A DNA stretch of 64,000 nucleotides. Origin: Rhizophagus irregularis (lineage: Eukaryota). A model generated the notes under the pieces. It was given only the letters and a program-made list of their open reading frames with translations, was not told the DNA's origin and did no database searches. Shown here in pieces: positions 12,748-64,000 of this stretch; the first letter of the stretch is position 1; the number at the start of each line of letters is the position of its first letter. The DNA lies in assembly GCF_026210795.1 (NCBI RefSeq), contig NC_089429.1, positions 3,038,001 through 3,102,000 of the forward strand, read 5' to 3'. The position numbers and the translations under genes are program-made.

Positions 12748-12764
12748 GACTAGGTTATTTAGTA

Positions 12765-12918
12765 ATAAAATAATCTAACTATAACTAAATAATCTAAGTA
12801 TGACTATAAATAATCTAAATATAACTAAATAATCTAAATATAACTAAATAAATTAAATATATCTAAATAATCTAAAGTTAACAACCTAAATATGATTAAA
12901 TAATCCAACTAAATAACC
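12765..12918. repeat. AT-rich tandem repeats of taaataatctaaatataac-like units
   Basis: Several degenerate ~19-21-bp copies directly after the palindrome. Confidence 0.8.
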
Positions 12919-23789: not shown

Positions 23790-23819
23790 TCTTTTTTGTG
23801 ATTATAAAAGAGAATCAGA

Positions 23820-25463: not shown

Positions 25464-25529
25464 GTCGCATGATTTGGGAAACAATGTTCGGACATTTTAT
25501 AGTATATAGTAATTCAGCGACCCATCACA

Positions 25530-26274
25530 ATGAGAAGAATGGAATATTATATTTATCATCTCGATGAGGTTAAAAGTATGAAGAACACCAATCACCCTGC
25601 AAGTCCTGCATTTCCTTTTCGTCTGTTAATCTGCGGTGGATCTGATAGTGGAAAGACCAATATGATCCTTAATCTTCTTCTTGGTAATAAAATCCAGCGA
25701 TTACATAAGAAAAGAAAAGGGGAAAGATATGTCAAGAATGATGATCTGGTCCTTATCGGGAAGCATATTCAGTGAACCGAAATGGGTATTGGTCAAAAAC
25801 TGCTATAAGATATTTGCAAATGCTCCAGAAGCAACTCGGGAGAATGTTACATTTCGGGCCTTAAAGGCGAACGCTATTCCAGATGTAACTAAGTTTTCCT
25901 CGGACAGAAATACAGTTGTTGTCTTTGAGGACCTTTGCGCTGAATCAAAAAAGATTCAGGATCAGATTGTCCCATATTTCATTAGCGGGCGACATCAAGG
26001 AATATCGAGCATATATGTGAGTCAGAAGTATACGCAAACTCCTAAAATAATCCGTGAAAATATTACGCATTTAGCCCTATGTCGAGGGAGTGGTAGTCGG
26101 GACGATATTAGTCGTATTGTGCACCAATACACAGATAATCCAAAAAAAGCATCCAAAATTATTGACAAACATCTGCGGGATCGGAATTTTGTGGTCTTTG
26201 ATTTTACTAAACCAGTAGATGATCCATTAGCGATTAGACTGGGTTGGGACACGCCTTTGAAATTAGAAGAATAA
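25530..26274 (+). pseudogene. A32/FtsK-HerA-type viral DNA packaging ATPase (one frameshift near 25770)
   Basis: [15 protein letters not shown] (Walker A), VVVFEDL (Walker B), [14 protein letters not shown] (arginine finger/Q motif), [11 protein letters not shown]. Confidence 0.85.
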
Positions 26275-44049: not shown

Positions 44050-44526
44050 TTACTTAACCTTTCTCGGTCGCGCCCTTCTTCGTTGCTTAGCCAAAGGCGC
44101 TAAAGCATGAGGGACAGCCTTTTTTTCTCTTACCTCAATTATCTCAACCGAATCGGAATCTTTGGAAGACTCAGACGAATAGTAGGAATTTTTATGCACA
44201 TCGCCTTTCGGCCCTTTTTTACTAATTAGCGAGGGAACTATTTCATGTATTAAGTCGACCACAGCTCCCCTATCTACACATTCGCCCAGATCATCCAATC
44301 CATCTTCCAATTCATCTTCCAATAAATTGACCTTCCTTTTAAGCTTTACATATTTGATATGATAATCTTCCAGTCTTTTTTCTAATGCCCAAATCTGTCC
44401 AGAGAGTGCTTTATATGCTCTTGTATTCTGCTCATCCAGTCCTAATGACTGGGCTAATTTCTCTGTATATCTGATAACTTCCTGCTCGCTGGATACGTCA
44501 GATGGATGCTTTTGATCGGTTACCAT
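44050..44526 (-). CDS. Coiled-coil protein with a basic C-terminus
   Basis: 158-aa ORF ending KQRRRARPRKVK (NLS-like). Confidence 0.55.
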   Translation of the reverse strand: MVTDQKHPSDVSSEQEVIRYTEKLAQSLGLDEQNTRAYKALSGQIWALEKRLEDYHIKYVKLKRKVNLLEDELEDGLDDLGECVDRGAVVDLIHEIVPSLISKKGPKGDVHKNSYYSSESSKDSDSVEIIEVREKKAVPHALAPLAKQRRRARPRKVK

Positions 44527-44652
44527 TTTTGTGATATTTTATATATGCTAGATCTTACCTTGAGCGAAAAAATAAAATTAATAAATAATACCAGGATTAC
44601 CGAAGGTAACGCTCTTCCGATTCTAATCATCTAACCCGTTTACAGTATGTGA

Positions 44653-45802
44653 TTAGTTTTCGTCAAAGAACTCGAATGCTTTTGCCTGATCATAAGGTAC
44701 CCCACAGGGCCTGTAATTGACTATAGTATAGTTTTTTGCAGGGGAGACATGGTTGTCTGCACTGTGGCGAAGTGCTTCACTAGCGATAGTCATAGCCTCC
44801 TGATAAATTCTTTGAACCATGCGATACAACTGCAAATACCGCCCCTAATTTGCGTAAAGAACTAGGAGTAGCGGTTTACCTATTTCAGGGGAGAAATTCA
44901 TCTTTTTTTAGGAATGTATTGAACCATAATACGCCTGGCTTTCCTGGGTCTCGTAACTGTCCGGAAGAAATTGCTTCCTGAATCCATATAAGCAATTGCT
45001 TCGCCCGTTCCTCATTCTTCTCTAGTGATCTAAATACTCGAGGAATGTCTTGTTGATCTCGATTTTTCCCATACCCAGTTACGTTTCCATTAAATATGTG
45101 CAAGTCTTTAATTTCGCCAGGGCGAATACAAAGCATTATCATTACATCGGCTAGGGCTTGTTTATCGGGTATATTTGACACAACATATGAATCCAGTCTT
45201 TCCTTAACCGATTCTAATGAAAAGTGGTCTGGATAATAGATCCCTTCATTCTCACGTAACAATCTATTCTCCTTTTGAATTTTATTAGCCGAACAAGTTA
45301 TGTCTGGAATAAATGTAGCCGAGATAATTTTTTTTGAGGCTCCGAGGGCTTTCAGTTCTCTTCAAGTCTAGCTGGTAGGGCGCTGATGGCCAGCGCTCGG
45401 CATTGTTAGAGGCCGTTCCAGATAAGGCCTTGGCTATAACTTCTACCTCTTTTTCGCTAATATTATCTCGGATAATACGCTCGGCCAAATCTCTAATAGT
45501 CTCTTTCGGTGAAATTTGACACACATTCACTGTCCCCTCTTCTGGTTCTATTTCCTGAGTGGTATCAGGAGTATTGGAAACGGCTCCTTCTTTTTTCCGA
45601 CCAGCCGTCTGCTTAGGAATTAATGCAAATACCTGTTTTTCGCTAAAGTTGTATCCTTTCTTGAAACGACGTCGTGCCTGATCCCTCTTAGTTTTATCCG
45701 TCAAAAGGATGTCTAACGCCAGTGCGTGTCGGCGAGCTCTTCGATACTCATCTCGTTATTGAGCTCGTTTTCTGTTACATATCTAGTAGCGATGCCAGCC
45801 AT
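44653..45802 (-). pseudogene. Tyrosine-recombinase-fold protein resembling a protelomerase (telomere resolvase), frameshifted
   Basis: Reconstructed motif order: MLCIRPGEI (R), VTGYGKNR (K), SSLRKLGAVFA (R, ~44835-44865, absent from the ORF track), EALRHS (H), PAKNYTI (Y). Confidence 0.7.
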
Positions 45803-45985
45803 GTTATTATTTGGTAATATGTAGGATATTTGGTTATACCTAGGTTGTTTGGTATATACTATGCGGAGAAAGTTCAATTCGAAAAAATAAATAATTGTTC
45901 TTCGTGTTACTTCGAAAAAACATAAGATATACTTTAACCAAGAAAATCGATCCACTATCGAGAGGGCTGGCTTTTTATTCGCTCT

Positions 45986-48900
45986 TTACCAAAGCATACC
46001 ATTCTCTTGGAGTGTGCTTACCGTTTTTTTCCATTCCTCATCAGTATCAAGCTAGGAGGATGTGATCCCATCTTCCTCGAGAACGGCGGATTATTTCTTC
46101 TCCTATTAATCTTTCCTGTACTTTCATGTCCATATATTCTTTGGGATCTTCTTTGGTCTCTATAGCCCAACCACATATTCGTGAATCAGTTTCCATCCTA
46201 TCACGGAATGTAATGGAATCGAGTCGGTCTTTTTCGGTGATGGTCACGAAGGCATCTGGATTCTCACCGAGTTCGACTGCCCTTTTTCTGAGACGCTCAT
46301 CTCGCTGAGCTCTGGCCAGAAGTATGGCAGACGATACTTCATTGATAGGCTTAGAAGAATCGGTTGGGGTCTCTTTAGGAGGCAAATTCACTACTTCATT
46401 GATAGGCTCGATAGATTCGGAAAGCTTGCTAGTCTCAGATGTTCCAGATGTTGAGGCGACTGGAGCACGTGTATTTTCTGCCACATAGTCGAAAAGGGCT
46501 TGGGTCAAATCGTCCTGTTTATCTGCTTTCTTATTTTCACTGATATTAGGTAAAGGCGTATTCTTTCTATCGGCTTGGCGCTCTGGTTGAGGTGGGATTA
46601 TTTTTGGAGGAATAATTTCTGGCATATTGAATATGGGTATGTCTGTAGTCTCATTTTCGGGCAAGTCGTCTTGAGGTATATCGGAAAATTCTTCCATATC
46701 ACCTGTGCCAGATTCACGAGAGCTTACGTATGATCTTGGAGCGGTCAAGTATATATTGCCATTCTCTTTTCCCACCACCTGTCTGCACTTGTTTGCTTTC
46801 AATACCAATTTCAGAAAACTTTTTTCCAGCAACTTTACTAGTCAATAGTTTTTCACCATTCTCTCCACACCATTCAAGATACTTTTGATATAATGATGTA
46901 CGACTTTGCGTAGATGTCCCAGCCTCAGCCCTAGATGTAATATAGTCAATTATAAATCGAATGGGACTAGAAAGCTGATCACGCATTGTATCTACTTTCA
47001 TTTTTGTAGAAGGAATTTTTCCTGGACTCCAATTTGATAAATCACGGCTAAGGAGGTATGCATCATGACTACTCCAGGTGCATCAGGATGGTCTAGAATA
47101 TCTCCTAGCCGGTCGAAATATGGTATATTACCTCTACAGCATGCAGAGACATCAAAACAGACTATACGAGAATCACCTATATCTATTTTGAGCGGAGCAT
47201 CCTGATTGCTTGTAACCATATACCCAGCATAATCATTTATTCGTATAGTTTCAAGACCCTTACGCTCTATAGCTACCATTCGTTCTGTTATGAGCGATTT
47301 GAGATGCCCGTTAAATCTATGCCATTCCCCACTAGACATTCCAGTCTCATTCATAACAATAAGCTTTCGAGCTTGAATGGCACTATTAAAACGCCCGAGA
47401 ATTTTTTCCAAATCTGAAGTTGCAAAATGGAGGTGTGACCCCAAGACTTTATCACCAATAAAGTCAGTAATAATATTTTTCCCGCACTGTTGTAATGTAG
47501 ATTTTAGTACCAAGATTGTCCGGAGCTTCATCTCTGGTTTCTGTACTAAATACGCCCACCAGTTCCAGATATATTCGTCAAGTCTTTCATCCCCACTACA
47601 GATTACGTTCTTTACATGCCAGAGAATCGGATTCATGATTTCTTTATTGATTTCTGACGCTGGCTTAGCCAAAAATCCTATGAAAAGATTAAAGAACTTT
47701 GTATCAATGAGCTAGAGTGTTTAGCGAATATGGAAGAAAATTAATATTGCGGTAAAGGATTAGACCTTTGGTAACCGCCTGATCTATTAAATTAATTAAC
47801 TTCACTCCCTCCCCACCTAGCTCAATCAAGTTAACTTCATACTTGGCAAGATCTAGTTTTGGTGCCATATCAAAATAAAGACCACCATTCGTATCCTCTA
47901 TTTTGAGCACCCATAATCTTGATGTTGTTTGAATACAGGCGACTGTTGCCTGAATTGCGTCATAAATCTCATTACGAGAAAATTTCCGTCCAGATACACA
48001 CATATCTATTAGATCGCCCCATACGAAACGGTCATTTGGGTCAGAAATTCTGGGTCGGTCTAATTTTATAGGGTTTGGAAGCTTTTTCTCTTTATCTAAA
48101 GCTGTTTCGCTAATAGTAAGTTTTAATGAAGGATTTCTCGTCCCAAGCTGTTTATCTTGATTGGCACGGTAACAGAAAAAGCTATAAGATCTTTTATTTC
48201 GTCTGATATATGCATTATCACTGGTATGTTCCCCCGATCACATAATGGGCAGTGTGATGGAGAGATGCGTGATAGTGGAAACTTGTCAGGAAAATTATCG
48301 GATGGATATGAGAGATTATACCCTTCGATGCTAGCTTCTTGAAGTAATGTCTCTACTAGTTCGAATTCAGCATCAGTGGTGACATTATTTATGCTAGGAC
48401 ATCCCTCCATTTCTGCTTTCGGAATATCTAAAAGAGAACTTTTAACGACTTCTGATTCATCATTAGGCGGGCGAATCATGAAGTCAAAGAGAGTTCCATC
48501 TTTTGGATGAACTGGTTTTTTTACACGAACATGTTCTCCAGTCTTTTCGTCAAACTTGGAGGATCCAAGCATCCGTAAGGAGAAAGACCTTTTATTTGCG
48601 ATATTATCAATAATACTATTTCCTTGTAGAGCTGTCGGAAGTTTCTTACGAACAAGCTCAGTAAAAACTGCAACCCGAGCAATATTTGGAAGTCTCATAC
48701 CAAAAGTCGAGATATGGAGGGACATTTTTTTTGCATCACTACTGCTGGCAATTGTTAAAGTTTTATAATCCCACTTCGGGAATATTTCCAAACATGTTTT
48801 TCTAAAACCAAGAATAAGTGAATCTAGTATCTCTTTACGTGTTAGCTTAGGCTCAATAGTATCAAGTACTTCTTGTGGTAAATCGAAATCTATGATAGGC

Positions 48901-49121
48901 CGGAGTGGTTCATCCCCATCAATGAATTCGTGTAAGGAATGGCCTTCACGTTCTGAGAGAATGGCTTCTATCTCATCCTCATTATCTGCACCGAGGAAAT
49001 GCCTTGGCCTAACACTATCGTCACGAATTTTATATAGGCATTGACCTATATCAGAGGCTTTAAACCCACAATAGAACGGGGCGGGCGCGTCGAGGAACTC
49101 TGAAAGCTCGGATTGGGTCAT
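45986..49121 (-). pseudogene. AEP primase, Zn finger, D5-like SF3 helicase and winged helix, frameshifted
   Basis: AEP motifs HEFI...RPIIDFD, KMSLHI, SLRMLGSSK; CPLCD; helicase QQCGKN, IVMNE, VTSN; wHTH LYQKYLEWC...GKKFSEIGI; acidic tail. Confidence 0.85.
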
Positions 49122-50005
49122 GGTATTATATAACAAATATACAGTTCGAGAGAAAGTATATACTCCGGGAGAAAAAAGTTCAAAATGAAAATTAATTCCG
49201 AAATATATAAATCGATACATAATCGAACTATTCATAGTTATCAAAAATGACATTTTATCGATGTCCATATATTCTCAGGACCGGAGAAGTTTGTAATCGG
49301 GGGTGCTTCCATCCAAAAGGGTGCCAAATACATCGGAATTCTCCTTCATATATACCTTGCATTGAATGTGGTAAACGAACTTATTCTGGATATGGGTTTT
49401 GCGATCTACATGCTAGAAAGCACCGTAAAAAGGAACAGTACCATCGGAAAAAGCAGGCTAAGATAGCTTCGGCGGAGATATTGGTAGGTAATTTAGAGGT
49501 AAACAAAAATAATACAGTTTGTCACTAGAAAAAAGATGTCACTGTCACTGAGAAAATCTTGGTAACGCCCTTGGTGACGCTTTTGGTGACAAAATTTATA
49601 GCTATTTCAGATTTTTAGAGCTCTCGGACGGTTTCTAGATGGGTGTCACCATGTCACTAAGAGTCACTAAGAAAAGTCCGAGAGTTCCTTAACTTTTTTC
49701 ATTTTTTTTAGCATATATGTATCACGCATATGTCATATATGTATCATACTATATCGCATATAAGCCATAGGATAGCATAGAAAAATTTCGATTTTTTTAC
49801 TAGAACTTTACTTTTTCTTAGTGACTCTTAGTGACATAGTGACAGATACAAAGGAAGATAATCGAGCGTCCCCAAACTTTGAAAAAGCATACAAGGGGTG
49901 TCACTAAGAGCGTCACTAAGAGCGTCACTAACAAATTTTCATAGTGACAACAAGAAAAAATCCGTCCTATTTTGCATCCTAATATGCCTGAAAACATACT
50001 GGAAA
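49079..50005 (-). repeat. Right inverted repeat of element A (identity to the left arm stops abruptly at 50005)
   Basis: Reverse complement of 13747-14673. Confidence 0.95.
49247..49528 (+). CDS. Second copy of the repeat-encoded zinc-finger-like protein
   Basis: Translation identical to 14223-14504. Confidence 0.7.
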   Translation: MTFYRCPYILRTGEVCNRGCFHPKGCQIHRNSPSYIPCIECGKRTYSGYGFCDLHARKHRKKEQYHRKKQAKIASAEILVGNLEVNKNNTVCH

Positions 50006-50365
50006 GTCGTCGGTCTGGATGTGTGTCTCGCTACCGCTCCACCCACCTCGGACTCACGTCCTCGCAGTACCTACTTGGGCCTTAATGGCCCTGGAATCCC
50101 CATATATCCGCCACAATCTGGGACAACATATGGAACAAATATATATACCAAATAACTAGAAAACAATAGAAAAGGAAGGAATAACGGATATAATGAGAGG
50201 GTTGTCCCGGATGTGGCAGATGTGGCAGATGTTTCAGAAAAAATATGAGAGGACATCCCCCCAGAAAAAGTTTTATTTTTACCCCCAGATCCGCCACATC
50301 CGGAACATCTGGAACAAGTCAGGATTCCGTCTAATAATCTATTGGAAGCAGTGAGACAGCAAACC

Positions 50366-50465
50366 AGGTAAATTAGTAGGTAAGCCCCTAGAAGGTCTAT
50401 AGAGCCAGTAAGACCAACCCCGTTCTGCCCCCGTCAGAAAAAATAAGTAATTGAACAATGGGTAT
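50366..50465 (+). repeat. Visible part of the left TIR of element B
   Basis: aggtaaattagtaggtaagcccctagaagg...gaacaatgggtat is the reverse complement of 63898-64000 apart from one small indel. Confidence 0.95.
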
Positions 50466-50504
50466 TGAGAATAGAGCATAACAAGATAAGTTTAGAAGAC
50501 AGTA

Positions 50505-50825
50505 CTAATCCGTCTTCCTCTTTTTTGCCTCCTTAAGGCATTTATCAATACACTGTTTACACGCATCATCAGAATCTAAGATTTTCTGTCCAAGTTTTTT
50601 GCATTGCCGATTGTAAGCCGTCTGCTGTCTCTTAGCAGCGGTTTCTTTCTTTTTCTCCTTAGTCTTCTTCTTGATCATCCAGTCTATTCCAGTAAAAGTA
50701 TTCTTATGCATACCACAAATTGTGCAGTCACCATGCAGCCGGTAACGCCCATTTGTAGTCATATCTTGTATTTCACTAGCCGTTTCAGTTTCCTTCTTGC
50801 ACTTTAGGCAGTAAAAACGTGTCAT
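50505..50825 (-). CDS. Small CxxC...CxxC zinc-ribbon protein
   Basis: FYCLKCKKETET...TTNGR...GDCTICGMHKNTF plus a basic tail; resembles small Polinton-associated zinc-ribbon proteins. Confidence 0.6.
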   Translation of the reverse strand: MTRFYCLKCKKETETASEIQDMTTNGRYRLHGDCTICGMHKNTFTGIDWMIKKKTKEKKKETAAKRQQTAYNRQCKKLGQKILDSDDACKQCIDKCLKEAKKRKTD

Positions 50826-50869
50826 TTTAAGATTTGAAGTCTAAAACCATTCCTTTAATTTGTTGTAAT

Positions 50870-51962
50870 ATGTCACACTTAGAGAATTACTATAAGTACT
50901 ACAATCTCTCCGGAGTACCAGCACGAATTCTAAAAGGTGAAGAGCACTACAACCTATACAAAAAGCCCCTAAAGGAAAAGTCAACAGAACGCCCAAAGGT
51001 AATTGTATGGAAACCAAATGCAACACATCAGGCAGATCTTGCAGAAATGCCAGTTGACCCCAAAGGATTCCACTATTTTCTCGTAGTGGTGGAAGTTGCA
51101 GGAAAGAGAGTTGATGCAGAACCCACTAAAGGATAAGAGCTGCAAATAGAGTTCTAAACGGGTTTGTCAAAATCTACAGAAGAAATCGTATTAAGCCACC
51201 AACACACAGACTGGAGACTTAGACTCCGGATCAGAATTCACTAACGACCAGGTACGTGATTTTTTCCTGAACAGCCTAGGGGTAATGATGAGGTTCGGAG
51301 AGCCAGGAAGGCATAAACAGCAATCTTATGCGAAAGAGCTATCCAAGCCATCCAAGAACCCCTTCTTAAACGAATGGTAGCACAGGAGTTGAAAACCGGG
51401 GTGACATCCGTGGAATGGTCAGAAGATTTCCATAATATAGTGAGTAAAGTAAATGAACTCTGGCAGAGAAATCCCCCAGACATTCCGACAGGATCACCCA
51501 AAGTGTCAAAAAAGACGGATCTCCTCTCTGAAGGAGCACGTGTCGAGTCAAGTTAGATGAACCTATCTCAGTATTCGGTAATAAACTTCACGGAAAATTC
51601 CGTACAGGAGACATAAGATGGAACCCAAACATTCGTGTAATCAAAAAAATGATACTCTCACCCGAACAGCCTCCTACATATCTCCTTAATGGACCACATG
51701 GTCGATTAGGTGTATCCAGATGTGCATATACCCGAAAGGAATTGCAAGTAGTTCCTATTAATGAAAAGCCTCCACCTGACTCTGTGATAAGAGGACAACC
51801 TGAAAGATTTATTCCTGAGCAGATACTTCGGCATCGCATTAGAAAAGGTCAAGACCAGTATTTGGTTAAGTGGGAGCGCTATCCAGACACTGAGGCACTT
51901 GGGAACCTGCTGACCGGTTGAAGGAGGATGTCCCTGACTTAATTCGCAAATTTTGGGAATAA
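50870..51962 (+). pseudogene. rve integrase with a C-terminal chromodomain, several frameshifts
   Basis: HQADLAEM (D), LETDSGSEF (D), YAERAIQ-like (E); chromodomain PEQILRHR...QYLVKWERYP...WEP. Confidence 0.85.
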
Positions 51963-51987
51963 AAAAAATAGAAGAATTAAAGGGTCT

Positions 51988-52731
51988 TATTTTTTATCCC
52001 CTCGATTAGCATCAGGAACTATCGGGATAAAAACATTCTTCCCATCACAGGTAAAGGCTATATGTTCACGTGATTCATGGACATCATAATTGTAACGTTT
52101 CAGACACGTTCGGCTTAACCCAATTTCCCTATGCTTGTAACCACTTAAGACTGCAAGGTCCTCAGTGATAGCATAATCAGGGGGTAAGTTTGATTGTCAC
52201 TCCCTTTACCATGCCGAATGTCCTACCTGTTCCTGAAGCACCAGATATGTTATATGTAATACTCTTGTCAATATCCAACCCTAATTCCTCAGCAGCTTCT
52301 CTCTGAATAAAAGACGCATTAGCACAAGTGTCTGCTAAACACTGAATTGCTATTCCATTAACCTCCCCATCCAGTGCTAAAAGATCTTTAGTATTCTCTA
52401 AACGAGCTATGTCAATATCCATAGGATCATCTACCCTGATATCCTCTTCTTGTTCCTCCTCAACTAGGTCCTCCGGAATCTCTGTGACTTTTCTAGCAGA
52501 CAATAACTCCTCCTGAAGAATCTCGCGGAGTAATTTCCTAAAGTCTGCAGGACGCTTAACAGGGCAATAAAGTCGTTATTCAGTAACAGCTTTTGCAGGT
52601 GTAGACTTGCTACCAGTAACTTTCACAGGAATCTTAACAGGGGTTGCTTTGCCTTTCAATGGCACACTAGAAGAGCTAACTGCTGTCTTATTTGGGGACG
52701 ACTTAAGAAGTTTTGAGATACTCGAACCTAC
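51988..52731 (-). pseudogene. Aspartyl protease region of Gag-Pro
   Basis: PMDID linker, CLADTCANASFI active site, ISGASG flap. It lies in the -1 frame of the Gag stop, with one in-frame TAA at 52576-52578 and a frameshift near 52180. Confidence 0.75.
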
Positions 52732-54930
52732 TTTTTTGACCCAACACGAACCATATAGACATCACCATCTTTTTCTCTCAATTCTACCTTTTCACCAAAA
52801 CTCGCAGTATCAATGTCCATAGCATCATCATTAAGATCGAGGTTTCTCATTGCTCGGGCCAAATCCAGATCATCATGTCTATCTTTAGCCTTCTGAAGTT
52901 GTTTTGTAAGTATTTTAGACGTCCCACGTTTATATCCCATAATAAGATCAATAGCATTTTGATGATCATCCAAAGTCCACTCAGGAGCATCAGGTCATCA
53001 CCAACATCATGATCTACATAACCATCATCCCAATCAGGATCCTGAGGATCCCGAACAACACGTCTCGCGTTTTGGCCGAACAGGTTTAATCTGCTGTCTA
53101 TAGACTGGTGGATTACGAACTGGCCGAGCCTGTAATTGTTTAAATTGCACCTGAAAATTCTTGGTAAGTTCCTCAGCTTGAGCCTTAAGTAACTCTCTTG
53201 TAATTGTTCTTGAGTAACCTCAGATGACTTTGATGTCAGTACGACAGGTTCCTGTTTTCCTAACGGAGGTTGAGTTACATCACTGTAATCTGCTTGAAGT
53301 CGTCGATTTCTATCTTGTAACCCCAAGCGCATTTCAGCCCTTCTCCGTTCTAAATTTCTCAGATGTTTAACCAAGTCATCAGGATTAAGATTACTAAACC
53401 TTTCTGCTTCAAAAATATTATCAGCCGAAAGACCTCTAAAGAACTGGTCGATAATAAGATCATCAGTTAGTTTTAATAATTTTCCAGCCCTCTTTACAGT
53501 TCTATAAAATACATCGACTGGCTCATTTTCCTGATAAAGACTGTTAAAACGGATACGTTTCTTTTCATCTAAAATAGTTGGGAATTGTGTTCTAAGCCAA
53601 TAAAGTGCCTGATTAGGTTTAATACCTGGAAAAACTATAGAACGATTATTATTAGCAGCAACACCAGCATCCGCAGTAGCTAGAGCAACTCTATCTGTCG
53701 GACGAGCACCAGCTCTTCCCCAAGCTTTATCTCCACCTATTAAATCATGGGTAGGAATAAATGCTGCTCTAATAGTTACTAATGCATTAGCTGCATCTGT
53801 AGTATAAACATGTGCTTCAGACCCATTTACATAAGTACGCACATTCGGTCTATCACCTTCTGGTATCACTAATGCTACAAAAGCAGCTAAATTAGCTCCA
53901 CCAGCTGAAGTGATACCAGAAAGTTCCCAATTTTTTCCTGTAATTTCTCGATCAAACCATTCAGCTGCTTCACCGGCCATGCAGCTTCTAAGTATACCCA
54001 TAGCTCTTTTCCAAGACTCTGGTGGCCCTCCAGCAGCATATGGGTTAAGATTAATAGTATCAAGATAACCCATATAAAGCCTAACAAATGTATCAATATC
54101 ATCAGTAGCTTTACCCTCAAAAATTGGCAATCCTATCGCAGTGGTAGCCATATCGTCTCTAGTGGATTGTTTAAAAGAGGTGGAGGAGGGTTCAATTGTC
54201 TAATTCGAAACCATTGTACCTGAATTCTAAGAGCAGCTATCTGTTGGAAAAGTCTATTCCTAAGTCTCCCTAATGTCTGAATCCCAAAACGCACCCTATT
54301 ATTAGCATGTGCTAGCTGTACATTAACCTGTCCAAGTTGTGCATTAGCCAATACAAGTTGTCCTCCAGTCCGAGTAGCCCTCAGCCGCCAATGATTTAAA
54401 AGGATATTACCACGATTCACAGCATTTTGAGCCTCATTACGATCCCTTACTGCTTGAGTATAATCTGCTTGTAATACATTACGTTCATGTCGTGCCTGAT
54501 TACGTTCACCTATAGCCCGTCGACGAAGCTCTACCATAGTATCATAATCTCTTTGCAGGTTATGGTTTTCTTCTATAAAATTATCATTGGCAGCACGTAT
54601 AATAACTAATTGACGTTCTAAATTAGTAAACGTTTCATCAAATGCATTTATCTTACCTTGTGCAAAAACTAACAAATCTTTTGTAATACCAAGTTCTTCA
54701 TGTTTTGCTTTACAGCGATACATTAATATATTAATAATATGTTTGATTTGATTATTTGCCTCCTGTATCTCTGAATCAACAGTTAAACGACCCCTGGTAG
54801 TCAATAAATTTGCATGAGCCTTTAGTATTCTAACTAATTCATCATCGTCTTCTTCATTAGCCAAGTGTGCAGGAGGCGGTCCAGTAGGTTCTGAAGGAGT
54901 ATAAACTGGAATTGGTGTTGATGTCGACAT
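52728..54930 (-). pseudogene. Gag-like protein (coiled coil plus capsid domain)
   Basis: PIFEGKATDDIDTFVRLY...MAGEAAEWF; YWLRTQFP; LYQENEPVDVFY...DQFFRGLS. Homologous to the Gag of element A. Confidence 0.8.
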
Positions 54931-54961
54931 AGTATTTAAACTAAGTTAGAATAAAATTCAA

Positions 54962-55821
54962 ATGGATCTTTATGTATACAATTTGGATGAGTACACGACC
55001 GACTCAAGACAAGGCAATGAGTTTGCTCCATCATGGCCCTTTCGATTAGCCGTAGCAGGTAGCTCAGACTCAGGTAAGACAACTATGATCATTAATTTGT
55101 TAATGGGTGACAAGAAAGCAAAGGAGAATGGTAATCGGTATGTACTATGTGATGCAGTACTTTTAGTTGGCAGATATCTTGACGAGCCAAAGTGGGCAGT
55201 TGTACATGATTTTTCGAAGAGGAGAAGATCCCATTCACTGCAGTAACCCATAGTGAGATTCCAGAGATTGACTCCTTCGACCCTACTCAAGCTACTGTGG
55301 TAATCTTCGAGGATCTGATGGATGCACCTAAAAAAATCCAGGATCTTATCACTGGTTACTTTACACATGGACGACACAAAAATATTTCATGTATTTATGT
55401 AGCTCAAAGATTCTTTGCCATTCCTAAGGCTATTCGAGAAAATGTTAACTACATCTCACTGCATGGAGGTCATGGGAGCCTTACAGATACTAAGAGAATC
55501 ATTCGCCTATATACAGAAGAATCAGAGTCATTAGCACCAGTAATTGATGATCTTACTTTGCAACGTGAATTTGTAGTGTTTGATCTTAGACGGTCTCCCA
55601 AAAGTGATCCACTGTCCATTCGAGTAAGATGGGATACTAGTCTCAGTTCGATCACAGAGCAATCTCAGTTCAATCCTAGTTCAATCTCAGTTCAATCTCA
55701 GTTTGATCCAAGTTTGAACCCAGTTCGATCTCAGTCTGAACCCAGTTCAATCACAGTTCGATCCAAGTTTAGTCCCTATGGTCAGAAAGCTGTATCTGAA
55801 GCAAAAAAGGTGGACACTTGA
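54962..55821 (+). pseudogene. A32-like packaging ATPase (frameshifted)
   Basis: PFRLAVAGSSDSGKT, VIFEDL, HGRHKNISCIYVAQ, PKAIRENVNY, IRVRWD. Clearly homologous to 25530-26274. Confidence 0.85.
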
Positions 55822-56186
55822 TTGAATTTGCTCGGGTATTTCCATCCCCTAAAGAGCGTCAACATTTACTTGTACCTGGTGTCTTAGCCAAGAATACAGA
55901 TACCTGGATTAAATTTGTCTTTCGGGAAGCTTATGGACTCTCTGGTAAGACCCTAGGAGCTGACTTTCAGGACTTCTTAGCAAAAGTACAGGGTAGGACT
56001 GCAAAGACTGAAACTCTGAAAACTGAGAATGTGAAGGAGTTATTCTCCCGATATGAAGCCCTGAAGTCTAGTCGCCCTCTGGATAATAAAAAAATAATAG
56101 AAGGTATTGAAGTCCTTCTACAGATCTTTTCTAAGAGCCACATGGACCGTCGAGCATTACAAGTAGGGATTAATAGTATCTTGTGA
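55818..56186 (+). CDS. Hypothetical protein (possibly a C-terminal extension of the ATPase)
   Basis: 122-aa ORF overlapping the ATPase stop. Confidence 0.4.
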   Translation: MIEFARVFPSPKERQHLLVPGVLAKNTDTWIKFVFREAYGLSGKTLGADFQDFLAKVQGRTAKTETLKTENVKELFSRYEALKSSRPLDNKKIIEGIEVLLQIFSKSHMDRRALQVGINSIL

Positions 56187-56541
56187 GAATATCAAGTAAT
56201 TCGTCTGCAGAAGCTCTAAGAATCATAGCACTTTTTTTACGGCCTTCAAAGTCAATCCTTAACATCTTAGCCTTCAACCCTATTGCTCCTAAAGCACGAG
56301 AAGCAAAGTTCTTAGTCATTGGATTACTTATACGATTTACATAGTTCTCATAGAATGTAGTGAAAGGCTCGTCAATACCATCTGGATATGTATCTCTTAG
56401 AAATTGATATAAAGCAATTTCTCCACTGTCACAACCTATGGCTATAAGCTGTTCGAGAAGCCACTTCCTAATATCTTCATATGGCTCTCCATCCATAATT
56501 TTCATATCCAGTCTTTGTGTAAACAATTGTGTAAAGTCCAC
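56170..56541 (-). CDS. Small winged-helix-like protein resembling the helicase C-terminal domain
   Basis: FTTFYENY...PMTKNFASRALGAIGLKAK parallels VQEFYRVY...PLSKINASRILSNELGINSR in 61453-62283. Confidence 0.55.
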   Translation of the reverse strand: MDFTQLFTQRLDMKIMDGEPYEDIRKWLLEQLIAIGCDSGEIALYQFLRDTYPDGIDEPFTTFYENYVNRISNPMTKNFASRALGAIGLKAKMLRIDFEGRKKSAMILRASADELLDILTRYY

Positions 56542-56776
56542 ATTACTTCCCCCGACGAATGATCTGAACTAACTTATTCCTAGCAAGTCCCAAGGCTTGT
56601 AGAGGGTCATTCTCATTACTAATCTTCTTTATAATCTGTCTGTATAACACGCTGGATAATCCTCTATGTGCTGTTTTTGGAGTGATTACTCCACAGTTTT
56701 GGCACTGGTTTATTACGATTGATGTTGACATGGCTATCTTTCTTTATGTAAAAAAGAATTATTCAAAATTAAGTAA

Positions 56777-57358
56777 CTATTCGGAGCAGTCCTTGCACAA
56801 CTTGTCCGTTAAGTCATTTGGGCTTACAGGCATGAGACATTCCCTACACAACTCAATATTAAGCTCTGCAAGTCTCGGGGTATGGTCCTCCAAAGTTCGT
56901 GGATGACCGGAAGGACCAGAGGAAGGTGTTCCGTTAGTCGTATCTTGCTGTAAGATAAAATCATCATATTCATCTTGGTCAGCCTGAATAGCGGCCCTGA
57001 TTTGTTGTATATCATTGAAAGTTAACCGCTGCCCATCAAGATTTTCCTCATTATAGCGTGTTTCATTGATGATTTCCTCTATAAGCGCCTCTTCTTCATA
57101 ATGGACAAGGTAGTAATCCTCAACTACCTCATAGTCACTCTCAATCAGTCTATGATATGTTCTAGTACCACGTCGAACATAACGTCCTGTATCTGTATTT
57201 AAATATACAGGTTGCTCTTCAGGTGGAGGTGCAGTTTGTCTACGGACAAGCCTTCCATCAATATAATCATGGGATTCCATAACTATTCGATTAAAGGTAT
57301 CTCCACCGATAATAATTGGACGTCCAGTTATAGGGTTAGCTATATAAGGGTAAGACAT
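56777..57358 (-). CDS. Protein with two NxxTGRxI motifs and a C-terminal CxxC-CxxC
   Basis: NPITGRPIIIGG, NTDTGRYVRRG, CREC...CKDC. Confidence 0.6.
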   Translation of the reverse strand: MSYPYIANPITGRPIIIGGDTFNRIVMESHDYIDGRLVRRQTAPPPEEQPVYLNTDTGRYVRRGTRTYHRLIESDYEVVEDYYLVHYEEEALIEEIINETRYNEENLDGQRLTFNDIQQIRAAIQADQDEYDDFILQQDTTNGTPSSGPSGHPRTLEDHTPRLAELNIELCRECLMPVSPNDLTDKLCKDCSE

Positions 57359-57419
57359 GTCTTTTTTCTGTATGTGTCTACATACCTAATAGTTTTCTTC
57401 AATTTACAATAACCAAGTG

Positions 57420-57630
57420 ACATGGTCATCAGTCCTTGTCGAAAAAAAATGCAAGGATACCTGATGATAAAGTTACATGGTCATCAATCCTTGTCAAAAA
57501 AATGCAAGGATACCTGATGATAAGGTTACATGGTCATCAATCCTTGTCGAAAAAATTCAAGGATACCTGATGATAAGGTTACATGGTCATCAGTCCTTGT
57601 CAAGAAATATGAGGATACCCGATAAATAAG
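57420..57630. repeat. Four tandem ~53-55-bp units, each with an internal inverted repeat
   Basis: acatggtcatca(g/a)tccttgtc(A-run)tgcaaggatacctgatgataaggtt, four copies, the last degenerate. Confidence 0.9.
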
Positions 57631-58048
57631 CTACTCCTGTTGAGTCCATTCATTCCACTTCCAGTCCAGTCTCCAAGGATCGCCTCCCCATCTTTGTTCA
57701 CTTAATGCATGCTCTATGGTTTCCCTCTCTTGGGGGTCCACGACCATCCCATTCCTAAGCATTTTCTCCATAATATAAAGCTGATCCTCGGTGAGGCGGT
57801 CTATCCATCTTTTATAGAAGTCGTTTACATCTTCAAATGATATCCAGTCAATATTCCCTTTTTCAAACGGCTTTCCAAGAGCTTGGACATGCCCAATTGT
57901 AGTAGCGTAATTTTTCCATCTCTTATATGCTTCTTGACGAACTTCCCTGCCACCACACACTATCTACTTTACTCGCTGCAATAAGGTCAGTATCTGGGAT
58001 CTTTGCAACAATGCGTTCGACTATTTCTACTGGTAATCGGTCCAACAT
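57631..58048 (-). pseudogene. F-box protein (one frameshift near 57946)
   Basis: From ATG 58048: MLDRLPVEIVERIVAKIPDTDLIAASKVDSVWWQ, then EVRQEAYKRWK in the ORF-track frame. This fits the F-box LP.EI...I...L...V...W pattern. Confidence 0.7.
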
Positions 58049-58142
58049 GATGTTATGTTACTTATACTATAGCCATCTTCAATTACTGTATGCCCATTAC
58101 AAATGGATAAAAAATATAAACTAAATTCGTACAGGGAGCCGC

Positions 58143-58611
58143 TTATGCAAGAAGTTCTGCTAAGGTTTTCTCAGCCTCGTTTTTAGTAATAGCTCGCTTT
58201 GGGGGACCGGTTGATGAGTCCTTAGTCGCATTATAATACAATTCGAAGAGGGCCTCAAGTTTGTCTAAAAGAGCTTGTTTATTCTTGTATGATTCACGAA
58301 TCTTTGCTATCTTAGCAGTATATGCTGCATTATCTGGGAAGAGTTTTCTGGCCACGAACTTCACATATGATACAGGAGAATTTGCCGTCTGGATTCGCTT
58401 GATATACTTCACATGATCCTGGACAAGGTAGCTGGTTTTGCTAAACCCAGATACTAATGCGACTACTATAGTGTCTTTCAATGCACGGATAATGCGAGGA
58501 CAGTTTCATCGAGACAATGGTGAACTGATTGTGCGATGCATCATAAATAACTTTATCACTAATGCTGTCAGTGCTGTTAATAATGCTTGCTAATTCGGTA
58601 TATGTTGACAT
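58143..58611 (-). pseudogene. Hypothetical protein (frameshifted)
   Basis: MSTYTELASII... from 58611 joins ORF 58143-58481 after an indel. Confidence 0.4.
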
Positions 58612-58723
58612 GATTCCTTATACTTTTTTGTACTTTGTAATAAATAGGAATCTTCAAATTGACTTTACATTCAAGCAGAAAAAATATATATACCTACTGT
58701 AAATCCAACCGCATTCTTGGCAA

Positions 58724-60606
58724 TCATGTCCAGATAACCTTGTTTGCATTTTTCACATGGCAGTATCCTGCGGTTTCAAACTTGAGAGCTTTCAATGCTT
58801 TGGATGCATTTTCTGGACAAGTGATAAGTGTAGGACTACTCGGCTGTTCCTCTAGAATAAATCCATCTGTATGGATGCGTCGTACTTTATCCTTATATGG
58901 TTCTAATAACTCTGAAGTCGTCTTCCGTCCATGTGCTAATAAGAATGGAGCGATCCTAGGATACTCACCCTTGAAGGGACTACCTGGGTTTGTGAACTGG
59001 AATCGCCACTGGTCAGATCCTACTGGTACGATGGAGTCAAGTGTGTGGCCTTCTGGAAACTTGAATGGATCTGTTTGATCTGTGGTGAGTGTCTTGTAAT
59101 TGCGTTTCCTCTGGCAGAGTGCTTCCCCATAGTGTATTGAGAACTCTCTTTGCAACACGACCGGCCACGCCACCCTGGTTCTTTATATTGAAGAGAAAGT
59201 GGACATACTCACCAAATATTACAGTCCCAGGAATTCTTGCTTCTCTGTCATATATCAAGGCATTTGGCTTTCCATCCTGGATTAACTGTATATCGAGTCC
59301 AAGTTTCTTTGCTCGTTGTAAGTCAATGAATGTATAGACTCCCCTCTTATTCTGTCGGAAGAGAATGTCATTACCACTTACCTTGCCCTTGGGCGCTCCT
59401 GGGAGCTAGCACGAAATAATCCATACAAGGCATAACCTCTATGGTCTACAAAGTCTTTGAGTATTTGAAACTTACCTTGTCGGATTGGAAAGTTTGCATT
59501 TGATTGCTGAATACTTGGATACAAACTTGTCACGTCGTATTGCCTTCCATAGCCCTTCCATTCATTGTCTGCCCAGATAAGACCTCCCATCATTGCATCA
59601 CTTATCCACTCTGCTTCGACTGGGTCAAGAGGATCATTGGCTGGAACCCCTACACTAAACCGTTCAAAAAGCCAGAGTGCAGTTCTCTTGTACGACCAGT
59701 TGTGGTAAGATAAGTCGATTCCTAGACCGAACTTCTTTGTAGCCTGTAGGAAGGAATCCCGCTCTTCATGGATCCTCTGGTATGTTTCCTCAAGTGTTTC
59801 ATATATTCCAGTTTTACAATTCTTCTCGATAGGGATGAAGGAGTAACTATCAGAGTTCTTACCTTTCTGAAACTGTCCAACTGTAAGAGACTTAACTGTC
59901 TTACCATTGTATATTGTTACTACATTATTAACCCCATCTTCACGATAAACAAAGGGAGACTTTTGTTTTCTATCTAATTTGCTAGGGTGGAGTCTTCCGG
60001 GATTCAGTGCAAGAGAGTAGTGGCCTTCAGACAGGATAAGTGTTGCACGTCTGTCAGATTTGCTCTTGGAAATTCGAGTGGAATCCCCTACAATATTAAG
60101 TGCAAGGCTTCCTGCAAGTTGTTCAACCTTATCCATATATGAGACTGGAACTGGAGCATCACGATTGAGACCTAATGCCTTTTTGATATACTCGGGCTTT
60201 TTGATTGACTTTGGCATTTTAGAGAATGTGCCGTAGATATATTTCAGGCATTCATACAGGCAATCATTTAGCTCCCCGTTGCAACCCCCTGCAACCGGTG
60301 GGGCATCTCTCACATAAATTATGAATCGTTCAAAATAATCAGGGTCCTGCATCATCCGGTAGTCATGGCTTCGTCGTAAGGGTCCAAGAGTGAGAAGAGG
60401 CTGGCTGGTTGGTTTCCTGATGTCCATCCACCGGGTTTCCAGTTTTCATAGGGAAGCAGAATCTGAAATTTATGTGTCGGATACCGGGATTGGAGTTGCT
60501 GTCCAAGTCTGGCAATAGCTCCTCTAGAAAATCTTGCGCCTGAATACTGTAGTTCTTTGATATCTGGTCTTGTAGGCAAAGCACGTGCAATTTTTGAATA
60601 GGCCAT
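58724..60606 (-). pseudogene. Compact protein-primed-type family B polymerase with an N-terminal OTU-like Cys/His motif
   Basis: GGLIW...QYDVTSLYPS (motif A), AKRVLNTLWG (B), IAPFLLAHGR, RIHTDGF (C variant); upstream NDCLYECL...LSEGHYS. Split over four ORFs. Confidence 0.75.
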
Positions 60607-60689
60607 TTGATATAACTATGAATTGTATTCAATTGTAATATAGGTTTTTTATATAAAAAATATAAGATAACTAAGAGGCGCTTATCTTA

Positions 60690-63286
60690 TTAAAAGGAGT
60701 CAATCATATCACAGGCCTCATCAATATCCAGCTCGTCTACAAATCCATTAGCGGCTTCCCATTCACGTTCCATATCAGTTTTTGGACGTTCCTCTGGGAT
60801 TTCTCGTGCCTTACCCTTATTCATCTTCATAGTTTCATAACCGGAGGTGGTAGGGATAATCTCGGCATCATGATCCTCCTTATATGCTCTTATTAGATCT
60901 GCGAGTTCTTTACGGCTAGGTGTTTTAGGTAAGTACCCATTATATTCTATCCAGTCCTGAAGCGGTCTACTACCTCCCTAAGGTAGTACTGGTACTCGTC
61001 CTCAATACGTGTTGTGGGACATTCCTCTACTTCAAACGCGAGTATTTCCCAGTCATAGTTGTCTGACACGTCTTGGTACTTAGCCCATAAATCCTTACCT
61101 GTATTGTGGAGATCATTGAAGACCTGGTCCTTTGAATTCTTGACCCATGGCTTACGATCCCATCGGTGCCTTTCATGCCAAGCCCAGTGTGCTCGAGTAC
61201 CTTCCTTTGGTTCAGGGGTCCCAGTCAACTTCTAGTTCTGTGTCGGGTTCTGGGATAGGTTGCTCTTTAGGAGCCGGTTCGGGTCAGGCTTAGTGACAGA
61301 TGCAGAAAATTCTGCGGGAGGCTCGGGTTGTTCTTCGGGAGCCGGTTCTGGGTCAGGCTTAGTGACAGATGCAGAAAATTCTGCGGGAGACTCGGGTTGT
61401 TGTTCAGGAGCTGGGTTCACAGTTGTAAAATCTGAGTCAGATAGCAAGTCATCTAAGACGTCATAGTCATCAACAGCTTTAAGTGCAGGTTCTTCAGCAG
61501 GCGGCTCATCTTCTTGATCAGGTTCCTCATCGATAGATAACAGTCTGAGAAGCTATCTATAGGTTCATCAGTATCTGACTTTATAGGAGCTGGAGATTCC
61601 TCAGGAATAGGATCCTCATTGATGACAGGTGCGGGTTTTACCTTCAAGCAATCGGGCTTAAGTGGTACTGGTGGTGGAGTCTTTTTGGTCTCTTCAGTAG
61701 GCTTCTTCTTGACAGGAGCGGGTTTTTCCTCAGCAGGTTTCTCTTGTACGTCTTGTGGATTATTAGCAGGAATGCTATATATATTTGCCAAGAACTTTTC
61801 TAAGGCTTTGGGATCAGATGCGGGCTTCTCGGGAGTTTCTACATCTATTCCTTCTATATTGATTTCATCTGTTTCGTGGATCCATTTTTTGGTGAGAAAC
61901 TTTTTGTAAAGGTCCTCCCTAGATATGCTGTAAACTCGTGGTGTTGTCTTACCTACACGTATTTTTCTGCTATTTATACCCAACTCATTTGATAGGATTC
62001 TAGAAGCGTTTATCTTTGATAGGGGTGTAATGCAATGAGTTTCACAGTATGAAGTATATACCCTATAAAATTCTTGAACAGGTAGGTCGGTTATATGATT
62101 TTTTACTATGAGGTAAATGTCCTTTATGAATTGAAATAGGGGTGGGAGAGTTGATATGATGTGATCCTGCTTAGATGTTGTCATAGGTGGTGGATTCCCA
62201 TTGAAGTCTGGGTAAGCGTCTGCAATGGCTCTCGTTGTAAGCATAGAATGCCTCACTGGCACCTGGGTATTTGATAGCGTCACTGAGTTTTTTTAAAGTA
62301 GTTGAGGTCTTCCCTTGCGGGATGGTGACACATCCAAGAACACTGTGCGCCTATCATCATTATCCACTCTGAGAGCATTTTGTTGGTTAGGACGATAGTA
62401 GACATAAAGTTTTTATAATGTGTTGGTGTCTTGTATTTTTCATGGATTTCCATTATGTCACTCGTTACCTTATCCTTTAAAGAGCGATACAGATTATTCC
62501 ACTGGCTTTTTTCCGTGGGCATTTCCTCGAGAAGAAGAAGAATCTTACCCTGTAATTGCCCATTGAAACTTCCACGAATCGTCTCAGGATCGCTGGTCTT
62601 ATAAACGAGTTGAGTGCCTAGGACGCTGCGCTGAATGAAATCTGTTATAATGCCTTTGCCCCAACCCTGTCCAGATTTCAGGTAAAGGATCGAATACATT
62701 TTCCTTCCAGCTGCCACACCGGCCAACCACTTTATGATATACTCAGTAAGATTCCAATCGCCTGAACACCAGATATCCTGAATGTGGGAGAAGATAAATT
62801 TAACCGCGAGGTGGGTTGTAGATTCAAAAGTGGATATCGGACGCAGGATATGGAGGAATCCTGGAAAGATATTGAGATAAAGTTGGCCACCTAGTTTAAA
62901 GATACGGGATTTTTGAGGGTCACAGGTAGCTACACATACAGTACTATATTCGATCATAAACCATTTGTTGATATTAAATTCAACCTTTTGTGAAGGACCC
63001 TGTTCAGATTGTGTGTAAAAGACTTTGGTAATTGGACGGATAAGTTTATTAATATTTTTATCAGGGATGTGCTCGAGGTTTTTGATTTCTGATCGCCACA
63101 TGAAGACTCCATGTGGGTTGGAGCAGAGGGGATAAAGTAACTGCAAAGATAACCTTTAGCTTGATTGAGATCCCTCATATTCTTTGCAGCGTTAATGAGC
63201 CGTTTAAGCTCATCAATACTAAAAGCCTTCTTCTGTTCACCGAACTTGGGGATAACTTGAGCTTGAGTGCTAGTTTGGGCAGTCAT
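60690..63286 (-). pseudogene. D5-like SF3 helicase, winged helix and Pro/Glu-rich tail; no AEP domain visible
   Basis: YLNIFPGF, IWCSG, SGQGWGKG (Walker A), LLLLEEM (Walker B), VLTN (sensor). Internal direct repeat PAEFSASVTKPD twice at ~61270-61410. Confidence 0.8.
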
Positions 63287-63507
63287 TTTTTGTTCTATCA
63301 AATCGAGTACTAATTTATAGTTACCTAATCTTCAATTGCCGAATATTTTTCCAAAGATCTGCACTCCTACCAATTTACCCTCCTGTAGTCCTATGGTCCT
63401 GCGATTCTGCGGTCCTCTGGTTATATCTGGTTATCTTCTAGGGGTAAAAAAAAAAACTATAAACCACGAACCTTTACGACTGCTCTAAATCTTCCCTTCC
63501 CCCTTTT

Positions 63508-63868
63508 TCAAACTACATATATCTGAAATCCAAACCGCTCAAGAGCTCCTTTTACTATAGTTAGCTTTTTTCTAGTGTCCGTTAACTCTTTACAAGCCTT
63601 TTGATACGCCTTCCATTCAAGTTCACGGAGGGTACCCTCCTCCTCCAATGATTGGCCAAGAGCATCGTTTGCTTTTTCCTTCTTTTCTACTGCCCTGTCG
63701 TATGCCTCCTCGGCTTTTTTATGCCGCTTCCAGAGTACTCGTTCAGCTTCGGCTTTCCAGATTGGGCTGACTTCTAAAAGACGTGGCCCGAAATTGCTAC
63801 TTCGGAATGTGTTCCAGGATATGGCCTACAAGTTCAGGAATTACTGATACTGCGTGCGGGGTATACAT
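63508..63868 (-). pseudogene. Second F-box-like protein with a helical C-terminus (one frameshift near 63801; absent from the ORF track)
   Basis: MYTPHAVSVIPELVGHILEHIP / SSNFGPRLLEVSPIWKAEAERVLWKR..., open to the TGA at 63510-63508. Confidence 0.55.
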
Positions 63869-63897
63869 GTTATCTGTCCTTATAGGTTACTTATGGT

Positions 63898-64000
63898 ATA
63901 CCCATTGTTCAATTACTTATTTTTTCTGACGGGGGCAGAACGGGGTTGGTCTTACTGGCTCTAGTACCGACCTTCTAGGGGCTTACCTACTAATTTACCT
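63898..64000 (-). repeat. Visible part of the right TIR of element B (continues past the window end)
   Basis: Reverse complement of 50366-50465. Confidence 0.95.

Follow-up and report, generated by a model that had tools for sequence, protein, structure and literature searches.

A predicted telomere resolvase and a candidate hairpin-telomere site on a mobile element of the root-symbiotic fungus Rhizophagus irregularis

The window analysed here, a 64,000-nucleotide stretch of Rhizophagus irregularis contig NC_089429.1, contains a decayed gene whose intact form is predicted to encode a hairpin telomere resolvase of the TelA-like protelomerase type. The gene belongs to element A, a ~38-kb mobile element of this root-symbiotic fungus, and a perfect palindrome at the left edge of the element is likely its cleavage site, through which the ends of a free linear form would be sealed. 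We consider it probable that the resolvase serves a ~38-kb linear replicon with hairpin ends that also integrates. The underlying observation is real in our judgement, and the element possibly represents a new class. Feature coordinates are collected in Table 1; published work is cited for the parts of each source that were accessible.

Table 1. Features of element A, its surroundings and element B in the window.
Feature	Position	Strand	Basis or remark
Perfect palindrome, 54 bp, 27-bp arms, no spacer	12694..12747	.	Candidate replicated-telomere target at the left edge of element A
Outer left arm of element A	12748..13746	.	Multi-copy in four runs; X1 contig 12809-13714
AT-rich array of a 13-bp motif, mostly 19-nt period	12751..13061	.	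Beside the edge palindrome
Inverted repeat, left copy, 929-bp (98.9%)	13747..14673	+	
RNA-primed-type family B DNA polymerase (PolB), three frames	14520..17959	+	PF00136, PF03104 (with exonuclease)
Coiled-coil ORF, Gag-like ORF, zinc-knuckle ORF	21311..23801	-	PF03732 E 4e-3, PF00098 E 2e-3, neither reaching cut-off
rve (DDE) integrase, one open frame	23808..25463	+	PF00665 above cut-off, E 2e-8
A32-like packaging ATPase, two frames	25503..26274	+	PF04665
Small ORF 3' of the resolvase gene, conserved neighbour	44050..44538	-	Matches 36 of 80 related loci
Telomere-resolvase-like gene, pseudogene with frameshifts	44653..45802	-	Motifs, frame breaks, predicted fold of intact relative
Two copies of the terminal-array motif, 19 nt apart, putative operator	45822..45853	-	Directly upstream of the resolvase start codon
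D5-type primase-helicase, several frames	46047..49274	-	PF19263, PF03288; directly upstream of the resolvase gene
Inverted repeat, right copy	49079..50005	-	Ends where element B appears inserted
Element B, nested, Polinton-like	50005..64000	.	Pfam, repeats; extends past the window end

The resolvase-like gene reads on the minus strand from a start codon at 45802 to a stop codon ending at 44653. Its intact counterpart is P0003 (R. irregularis GLOIN_2v1765707, 380 aa), to which three N-terminal pieces of the window copy are 96-97% identical. At least five frame changes separate the two (1150 nt in the window, 1143 expected), and judging from its reading frames the window copy is a pseudogene, like the PolB and primase-helicase genes of the same element copy. 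All catalytic codons are retained (R 45124, K 45067, R 44854, H 44766, Y 44730), and the five peptide motifs reported in a preliminary description of this DNA were all recovered on the minus strand where it had placed them. The gene is no chance reading frame: a search with the 158-aa middle piece gave 186 homologues at E ≤ 1e-3 from 444 candidates. The nearest are R. irregularis proteins with 99-100% identity, and the named homologues among the 120 listed are all from Glomeromycotina. The family is multi-copy in Rhizophagus, Gigaspora, Diversispora, Dentiscutata, Cetraspora, Entrophospora, Glomus and Geosiphon; one member (P0031) carries the database name 'integrase: PROVISIONAL'. A profile search among 1.84 billion sequences retrieved 542 representatives at E ≤ 1e-3, including GC-rich environmental homologues of 268-440 aa that keep the catalytic residues. 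Such GC-rich homologues (P0193, P0222, P0238, P0245, P0251 and P0191; 30-37% identity, on contigs of 1-22 kb) suggest by their sequences that the family also occurs outside Glomeromycotina. Pattern-based scans, of limited sensitivity, found no relatives in IMG/VR, GTDB genomes, phages or plasmids.

An AlphaFold model of the family (pLDDT 86.5, pTM 0.71) was built from 99 diverse sequences picked for coverage from 364; an earlier model on 52 close sequences was set aside for low confidence in the catalytic domain. VIA-align comparison with 48,161 chains gave four rows with Z of at least 8, namely TelA (13.9 and 13.8), TelK (12.1) and ResT (8.7), and below these lambda Int (7.6), XerA (7.2), Cre (6.4) and poxvirus TopIB (5.9; TopIB range 5.1-5.9). 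Superposition on TelA aligned 258-265 residues with an rmsd of 4.7-5.7; the rmsd was 12.8 for TelK, and structural alignments with protelomerases showed 10-13% identity. Foldseek against the PDB returned five matches at E ≤ 1e-3, all TelA (TM by query 0.44-0.50), followed at a small margin by Cre (E 1.1e-3, TM 0.36, vs 1.8e-4 for TelA). The single match at E ≤ 1e-3 among viral models was the EhV-86 telomere resolvase. In the ESM Atlas, which compares sequence features, 17 of 30 matches were ResT-TelK_cat clusters (0.94, 148 of 256 features common), and a phage-integrase cluster appeared at rank 20 (0.92). The model has a helical bundle (helices 103-160) with a 21-residue linker helix (164-184), and its residues 98-371 align to TelA 129-417; the N-terminal helical domain (residues 1-62) is additional to known protelomerases. 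A helical-bundle N-terminal domain connected by a long linker helix to the catalytic domain is described for protelomerases (PMC11317167, PMC3558466). The structural comparison with Cre and phage integrases that had been proposed as a check on the protelomerase idea thus gave the telomere resolvases TelA, TelK and ResT as best matches, in a fold assignment that rests on one predicted model. Because a telomere resolvase is reported to have been converted into a Cre-like recombinase (PMC12270096), the fold does not fix the reaction.

The R-K-R-H-Y pentad, which the preliminary description had named for known telomere resolvases, is kept in most of the 99-sequence alignment (R225 in 88 sequences, K244 in 97, R315 in 91, H344 in 83 and Y356 in 91) and down to ~30% identity in the family. 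Three residues before R315 the alignment has Ser (44), Lys (35) or Arg (13) in 92 of the 99 sequences, and no His. Classical Cre, lambda Int and Xer recombinases carry the His of an H-x-x-R motif at that position, and this motif is absent from the resolvase family in the 99-sequence alignment. The R-H-Y spacing of the family is 29 and 12, vs 28 and 11 in TelA, in which the catalytic residues are R366, H394 and Y405 (PMC3558466). A profile alignment with six phage protelomerases was colinear over 214 columns, with an HHalign E of 0.079 that is not significant; it placed R225, K244, R315 and H344 on TelN R275, K300, R383 and H416, and YPDHF of the family on IDYPTY after the linker helix. The corresponding comparison with lambda Int and Cre gave no catalytic-domain alignment, an unequal control because single sequences were set against the six-sequence protelomerase profile.

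At the sequence level, PF16684 (ResT-TelK_cat) gave no match at E ≤ 1 for the two sets of 11 and 12 family members, and the family HMM scored near zero on the six phage protelomerases. Sequence and profile searches of Pfam and the PDB gave nothing significant (XerH at E 0.9), and against PHROGs one of 52 members matched an integrase family, at E 0.07 only. Pfam yielded no match to Crypton, DIRS or Starship recombinases, and the VIA-align rows contain no solved structure of these families. Since the tested members do not match PF16684, we keep the family outside it; separate by sequence, it is predicted from the model to work like a protelomerase. The protelomerase-like interpretation originally offered for the gene is supported by the predicted fold together with the edge palindrome, and PF16684 membership by sequence is not part of it.

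The bounds of element A were read from contigs of four runs (X1, X2, X4 and X12) of four studies, one of which may be the source of the window. Positions 13747 and 50005 were dropped as element ends, since the contigs show multi-copy sequence beyond 13747. GC content is 40% at 13100-13746 vs 19% in the host flank, and the outer left arm probably forms the distal half of a terminal inverted repeat of ~2 kb. Depth over the outer arm, which is no copy number, is ~2x the internal depth in X4 and X12 and not in X1 or X2; because it is doubled in these two runs only, we infer the full ~2-kb repeat, with its right side cut by element B at 50004/50005, rather than observe it. The right end of element A falls beyond the window, as would any target-site duplication (5-8 bp in Polintons/Mavericks). 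The inner ends of the inverted repeat (14480-14673 and 49079-49272) hold an upstream motif and about the first 13 codons common to PolB and the primase-helicase. Both genes read inward from identical starts, with GCG in the left copy vs ATG in the right. Short units TTAGTGAC and their reverse occur in both orientations at 13820-13940 and 14076-14220, inside the inverted repeat, and are possible replication-origin repeats.

An RNA-primed PolB with a primase and a DDE integrase had been claimed for element A, and Pfam bears out both (PF00136 with PF03104 and PF19263; PF00665). The best PDB match of PolB is 8ywg (E 8e-114, vs 6e-14 for pol delta), which we take to be the African swine fever virus polymerase, and PolB probably belongs to the known asfarvirus-like polB lineage of R. 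irregularis. The C-terminal piece of the primase-helicase matches 10 of 80 related soil-metagenome loci, neighbour counts being limited by the length of most of these loci (<2.5 kb); locus L073 also carries rve and A32. In Gigaspora rosea, 6 of 15 PolB rows are on a contig equal in size to that of one of 17 resolvase rows, five of them within 8-17 locus tags, in a count that omits rows lacking a C2G38-type record. The Gag-like ORF matches Retrotrans_gag clusters (0.91). No second tyrosine recombinase was found among the 165 ORFs scanned in the window, and no Pfam match to a jelly-roll capsid or maturation protease among 62 + 103 ORFs, the element copy being fragmented. The cargo of element A at 39647-42165 comprises an ORF for a protein kinase and two pieces bearing Crinkler N-terminal domains, and the element may move such host-type expanded gene families.

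The preliminary description had called for a palindromic target without noticing one, and a 54-bp candidate is present at the edge of the element, 1 kb outside the obvious inverted repeat and 32 kb from the resolvase gene. Its axis falls between 12720 and 12721 within the central hexamer TAATTA. The 27-bp arm compares with shuffle maxima of 14 (500 shuffles, AT-rich region) and 10 (60 window shuffles). For comparison, the perfect arms of tel sites next to the protelomerase genes of six phages measure 11-46 bp, and the site of phage MAR has the same central TAATTA; the phage sites lie within ~300 bp of the protelomerase gene, vs 32 kb in element A. Element A thus carries a spacer-less palindromic site, to which the shared motif described below suggests that the protein binds. 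Two arms around an asymmetric spacer of 6-8 bp, as in a Cre-type site, are not seen in this candidate, the palindrome being symmetric through its axis. A pattern scan of IMG/VR, of limited sensitivity, found no relatives of the palindrome. At 38290-38307, a palindrome of 18 bp was discounted because shuffled sequence produces arms of comparable length (up to 10). A further perfect 18-bp palindrome, GGGAGGAAATTTCCTCCC, lies at 12659-12676, 18 bp to the left of the 54-bp one and apparently in flanking repeat DNA, and AT-rich palindromes are present in host repeats nearby. An identical GC-rich perfect palindrome of 18 bp was seen in two soil-metagenome loci (L037:9597-9614 and L073:4008-4025), ~3 kb downstream of the resolvase gene.

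In contigs of all four runs, multi-copy sequence continues from 13747 out to about 12710. X1 contigs of two subfamilies (depth 120 and 114) stop at 12710, a position that equally fits a variant at 12740 with 31-letter words, and 12640-12673 is uncovered. In one X1 contig of low depth, alignment begins at 12709 after 1176 other letters; in a divergent copy seen in X2 and X12, it begins at 12692 after ~3 kb of other sequence. The host repeat is broken at 12638, and an X2 contig departs at 12684. Subfamilies that differ by about 10-14% have their axis at an identical position. Among the matches listed, besides which there are 158 loose ends and 700 pieces, we read these contigs as at least three insertions, all starting at one axis and each keeping a short stretch of the opposite arm. 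No strand-switch joints occur among the contig joints listed for the four runs, contigs being unable to show DNA ends.

The centre of the palindrome consists of the 13-bp motif of the adjacent array placed head-to-head (12707-12719, plus strand; 12722-12734, minus strand). In the window the motif is matched 12 times, compared with 2.6 on average and 6 at most by chance. Nine of the matches fall in the terminal region, two just ahead of the resolvase start and one within host DNA; the count is descriptive because the pattern was written from both places. With a matrix made from 10 terminal units, the pair upstream of the resolvase gene ranks first in 13100-64000 on both strands (20.0; next unrelated site 8.5), and 6 of 300 column-shuffled matrices, or 10 of 300 with an AT-richer background, also ranked this site first. 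Among the 80 soil-metagenome loci fetched, 37 have a usable start; the best site of the matrix falls within 90 nt upstream of the gene in 25 of them and elsewhere in 12, though the 37 are not independent cases because they comprise ~10 upstream types. None of 300 column-shuffled matrices reached 25 loci (mean 5.5, max 23). The motif anchor was chosen after the likeness had been noticed. Independently of the matrix, a blastn comparison of the window with the loci found the array nowhere but at L054:1768-1839 (E 1e-5), immediately ahead of the gene at 1844. A motif like TTTTCGAATTGAACTT precedes the resolvase gene at 45873-45890 and in most related loci; variants precede other element genes (14557-14575, 49176-49194 and about 38690), and the motif is a possible element promoter.

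RNA-primed PolB with a primase-helicase cannot complete open linear ends. On a hairpin-ended replicon, replication round the hairpin would generate a head-to-head junction, namely the palindrome at the left edge. A dimer of the enzyme would sit on the two head-to-head 13-bp motifs flanking the axis, cleave TAATTA with a 6-bp stagger by way of a 3'-phosphotyrosine (Y356), and seal each strand back on itself in the manner of TelA and TelK; in all known protelomerases the two cuts are separated by 6 bp (PMC3558466). Through the same motif upstream of its gene, the enzyme may repress its own expression. Chromosomal copies would come from integration of the junction, or of an opened hairpin, into host DNA, with the rve integrase as the probable agent, and such integration would leave a short piece of the opposite arm, 27 bp in this copy. 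The left arm of the palindrome reads AG from 12696, and element B appears to begin with AG at 50005. Polinton ends are 5'-AG. Processing by the integrase 25 nt beyond the axis would be consistent with the AG starts; however, the retained arms vary between copies, and imprecise capture during host repair is equally possible.

The same evidence from fold and target would be given by a telomere resolvase acting on a single internal telRL, as in N15 and phaeoviruses, by which the element would be excised, circularised and opened once at the site. Ectocarpus EVEs offer a direct precedent in the accessible account, one palindrome was seen here, and the outer-arm depth is not doubled in X1 or X2. This arrangement needs conserved element sequence on both sides of the palindrome; however, left of it X1 is uncovered, the X2 contig leaves at 12684, and other copies have different upstream sequence. 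It also sits poorly with the long inverted repeats of element A and with the lack of a second tyrosine recombinase among the 165 ORFs, and we regard it as improbable. We see a similarly slight chance that host repair, or folding back at insertion, produced the palindrome incidentally and that the protein acts only as a site-specific DNA-binding regulator or relaxase at the terminal array. The 13-bp motif does recur upstream of the gene itself, AT-rich palindromes do occur in nearby host repeats, and the PxxLRKLG motif of the family resembles TopIB KDLRTYG. Against this stand the constant position of the axis in the diverged subfamilies, the five catalytic residues conserved to ~30% identity and the TopIB Z scores of just 5.1-5.9.

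Z scores of 12-14 for TelA and TelK vs 6-7.6 for Cre, Int and Xer make it unlikely that the protein is instead a divergent tyrosine recombinase, which would integrate or excise the element or resolve dimers, as in Cryptons, Starships and Polinton-like viruses, with the palindrome as a lox-like site. The absent HxxR histidine, the fully symmetric site centre without an asymmetric spacer, and the rve integrase already present in one open frame argue in the same direction. In favour of a recombinase are Cre and phage integrases close behind TelA in Foldseek, the database name of P0031, the start of integrated copies at the palindrome, and the tyrosine recombinases that act as integrases in many PLVs (10.64898/2026.06.19.733378, PMC11296320). 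The retained left arms, however, vary between copies (about 12, 27 and up to 29 bp), and are therefore a poor fit to site-specific recombination.

Element B had been described as having a protein-primed-type polymerase and no resolvase. No resolvase copy was detected in its part of the window with the family HMM, so that the second half of this description stands; the first half is left with a PF03175 match below threshold (E 9e-4). Besides this weakly supported protein-primed PolB, the gene set of element B includes a D5-like helicase, A32 and a chromodomain. Its inverted repeat, seen at 50366-50465 with 63898-64000, probably starts at 50005, inside the right repeat of element A. A coiled-coil ORF followed by a Gag-like ORF lies near A32 in both elements (21311-23801 in A, with a zinc knuckle; 52177-54945 in B, with an aspartyl protease), and Gag may be a regular module of elements of this type. 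No jelly-roll capsid was recognised in element A or B. The host side (5722-10527 and 789-1229) holds a PPR fragment, a phage-type (mitochondrial-like) RNA polymerase gene and a foldback repeat of 300-450 bp.

With slightly less than even confidence, we put forward a previously unrecognised class of self-replicating mobile element, which in Glomeromycotina would exist as a linear nuclear plasmid, or a minimal virus, with hairpin ends. It would be replicated by an asfarvirus-like PolB and primase-helicase, sealed at both ends by its own resolvase family and integrated at its telomere junction by a retroviral-type integrase; it may use a Gag-like protein for packaging in place of a jelly-roll capsid, and it would carry host-type cargo and explain the 15-33 scattered asfarvirus-like polB genes per R. 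irregularis genome. If the reading of a hairpin-ended replicon is true, these unexplained multi-copy polB genes of viral type gain a mechanism and turn from relics into parts of a mobile element. The fungal family, with a named candidate target, is open to direct in vitro testing, and a compact enzyme evolved in a eukaryote could serve for the production of closed linear DNA.

To our knowledge, the organisms and viruses with hairpin telomere resolvases are a few bacteria and their phages, together with some giant viruses of algae. The fungal family resembles TelA (Agrobacterium), TelK and TelN (phiKO2 and N15) and ResT (Borrelia) in its predicted two-domain clamp with linker helix, its R-K-R-H-Y residues without the HxxR His, and a spacer-less palindromic site of similar size. 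It differs from them in its low structural identity (10-13%), in matching no PF16684 model, and in lying on a nuclear mobile element with a tandem motif array and a motif pair upstream of the gene. TelN has a long C-terminal extension, whereas the fungal family is compact without it and has the extra domain 1-62. A bacteriophage system is reported to have replaced chromosomal telomeres in yeast (PMC13381899).

Among eukaryotic systems, phaeovirus EVEs are the nearest working precedent and carry a telomere resolvase, a tyrosine-recombinase integrase and an internal telRL, with fold-back reads at the palindrome (PMC13236599). Element A is like the phaeoviruses (EsV-1, FsV-158, Ectocarpus) and EhV-86 in being an integrating DNA element of a eukaryote with an integrase, a telomere resolvase and a palindromic site. 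The phaeoviruses, as far as accessible sources describe them, are giant viruses that integrate as circles by a tyrosine recombinase and have an internal telRL, whereas element A is ~38 kb and has rve, long inverted repeats and a palindrome at its edge. Asfarvirus-like polB genes are present in 15-33 copies per R. irregularis genome at strain-variable positions (PMC10640383, PMC7017919, PMC5294986). These 'Fundsbetavirus' or asfarvirus-like genes probably belong to the same polymerase lineage as element A PolB. The accessible parts of the same three papers take them as relics of giant-virus infection, and no bounded element, integrase, resolvase or palindrome was found there. Nor did the literature searched, which did not reach subscription journals and Repbase, yield a description of a fungal protelomerase or of element A.

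Related components have been reported: primase-helicase homologues in R. irregularis (PMC11296320), recent Maverick activity in the same species (10.1101/2021.03.30.436303), and fungal A32 genes, among them fragmented ones and Polinton-like ones of Rhizophagus (10.64898/2026.06.19.733378). Element A shares with Polintons/Mavericks and PLVs its terminal inverted repeats, rve integrase, A32 ATPase and multi-copy insertions. It differs from Polintons in an RNA-primed PolB with primase-helicase instead of a protein-primed PolB, a telomere resolvase, a Gag-like ORF, and no capsid or protease recognised by Pfam. Its polymerase matches PF00136 and PF03104 and not PF03175, and because the polymerase type differs, element A falls outside the Polinton definition (10.1101/2023.08.22.554363, accessible part). 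If the proposed life cycle holds, element A adds a hairpin-ended, RNA-primed route to the self-synthesising transposons.
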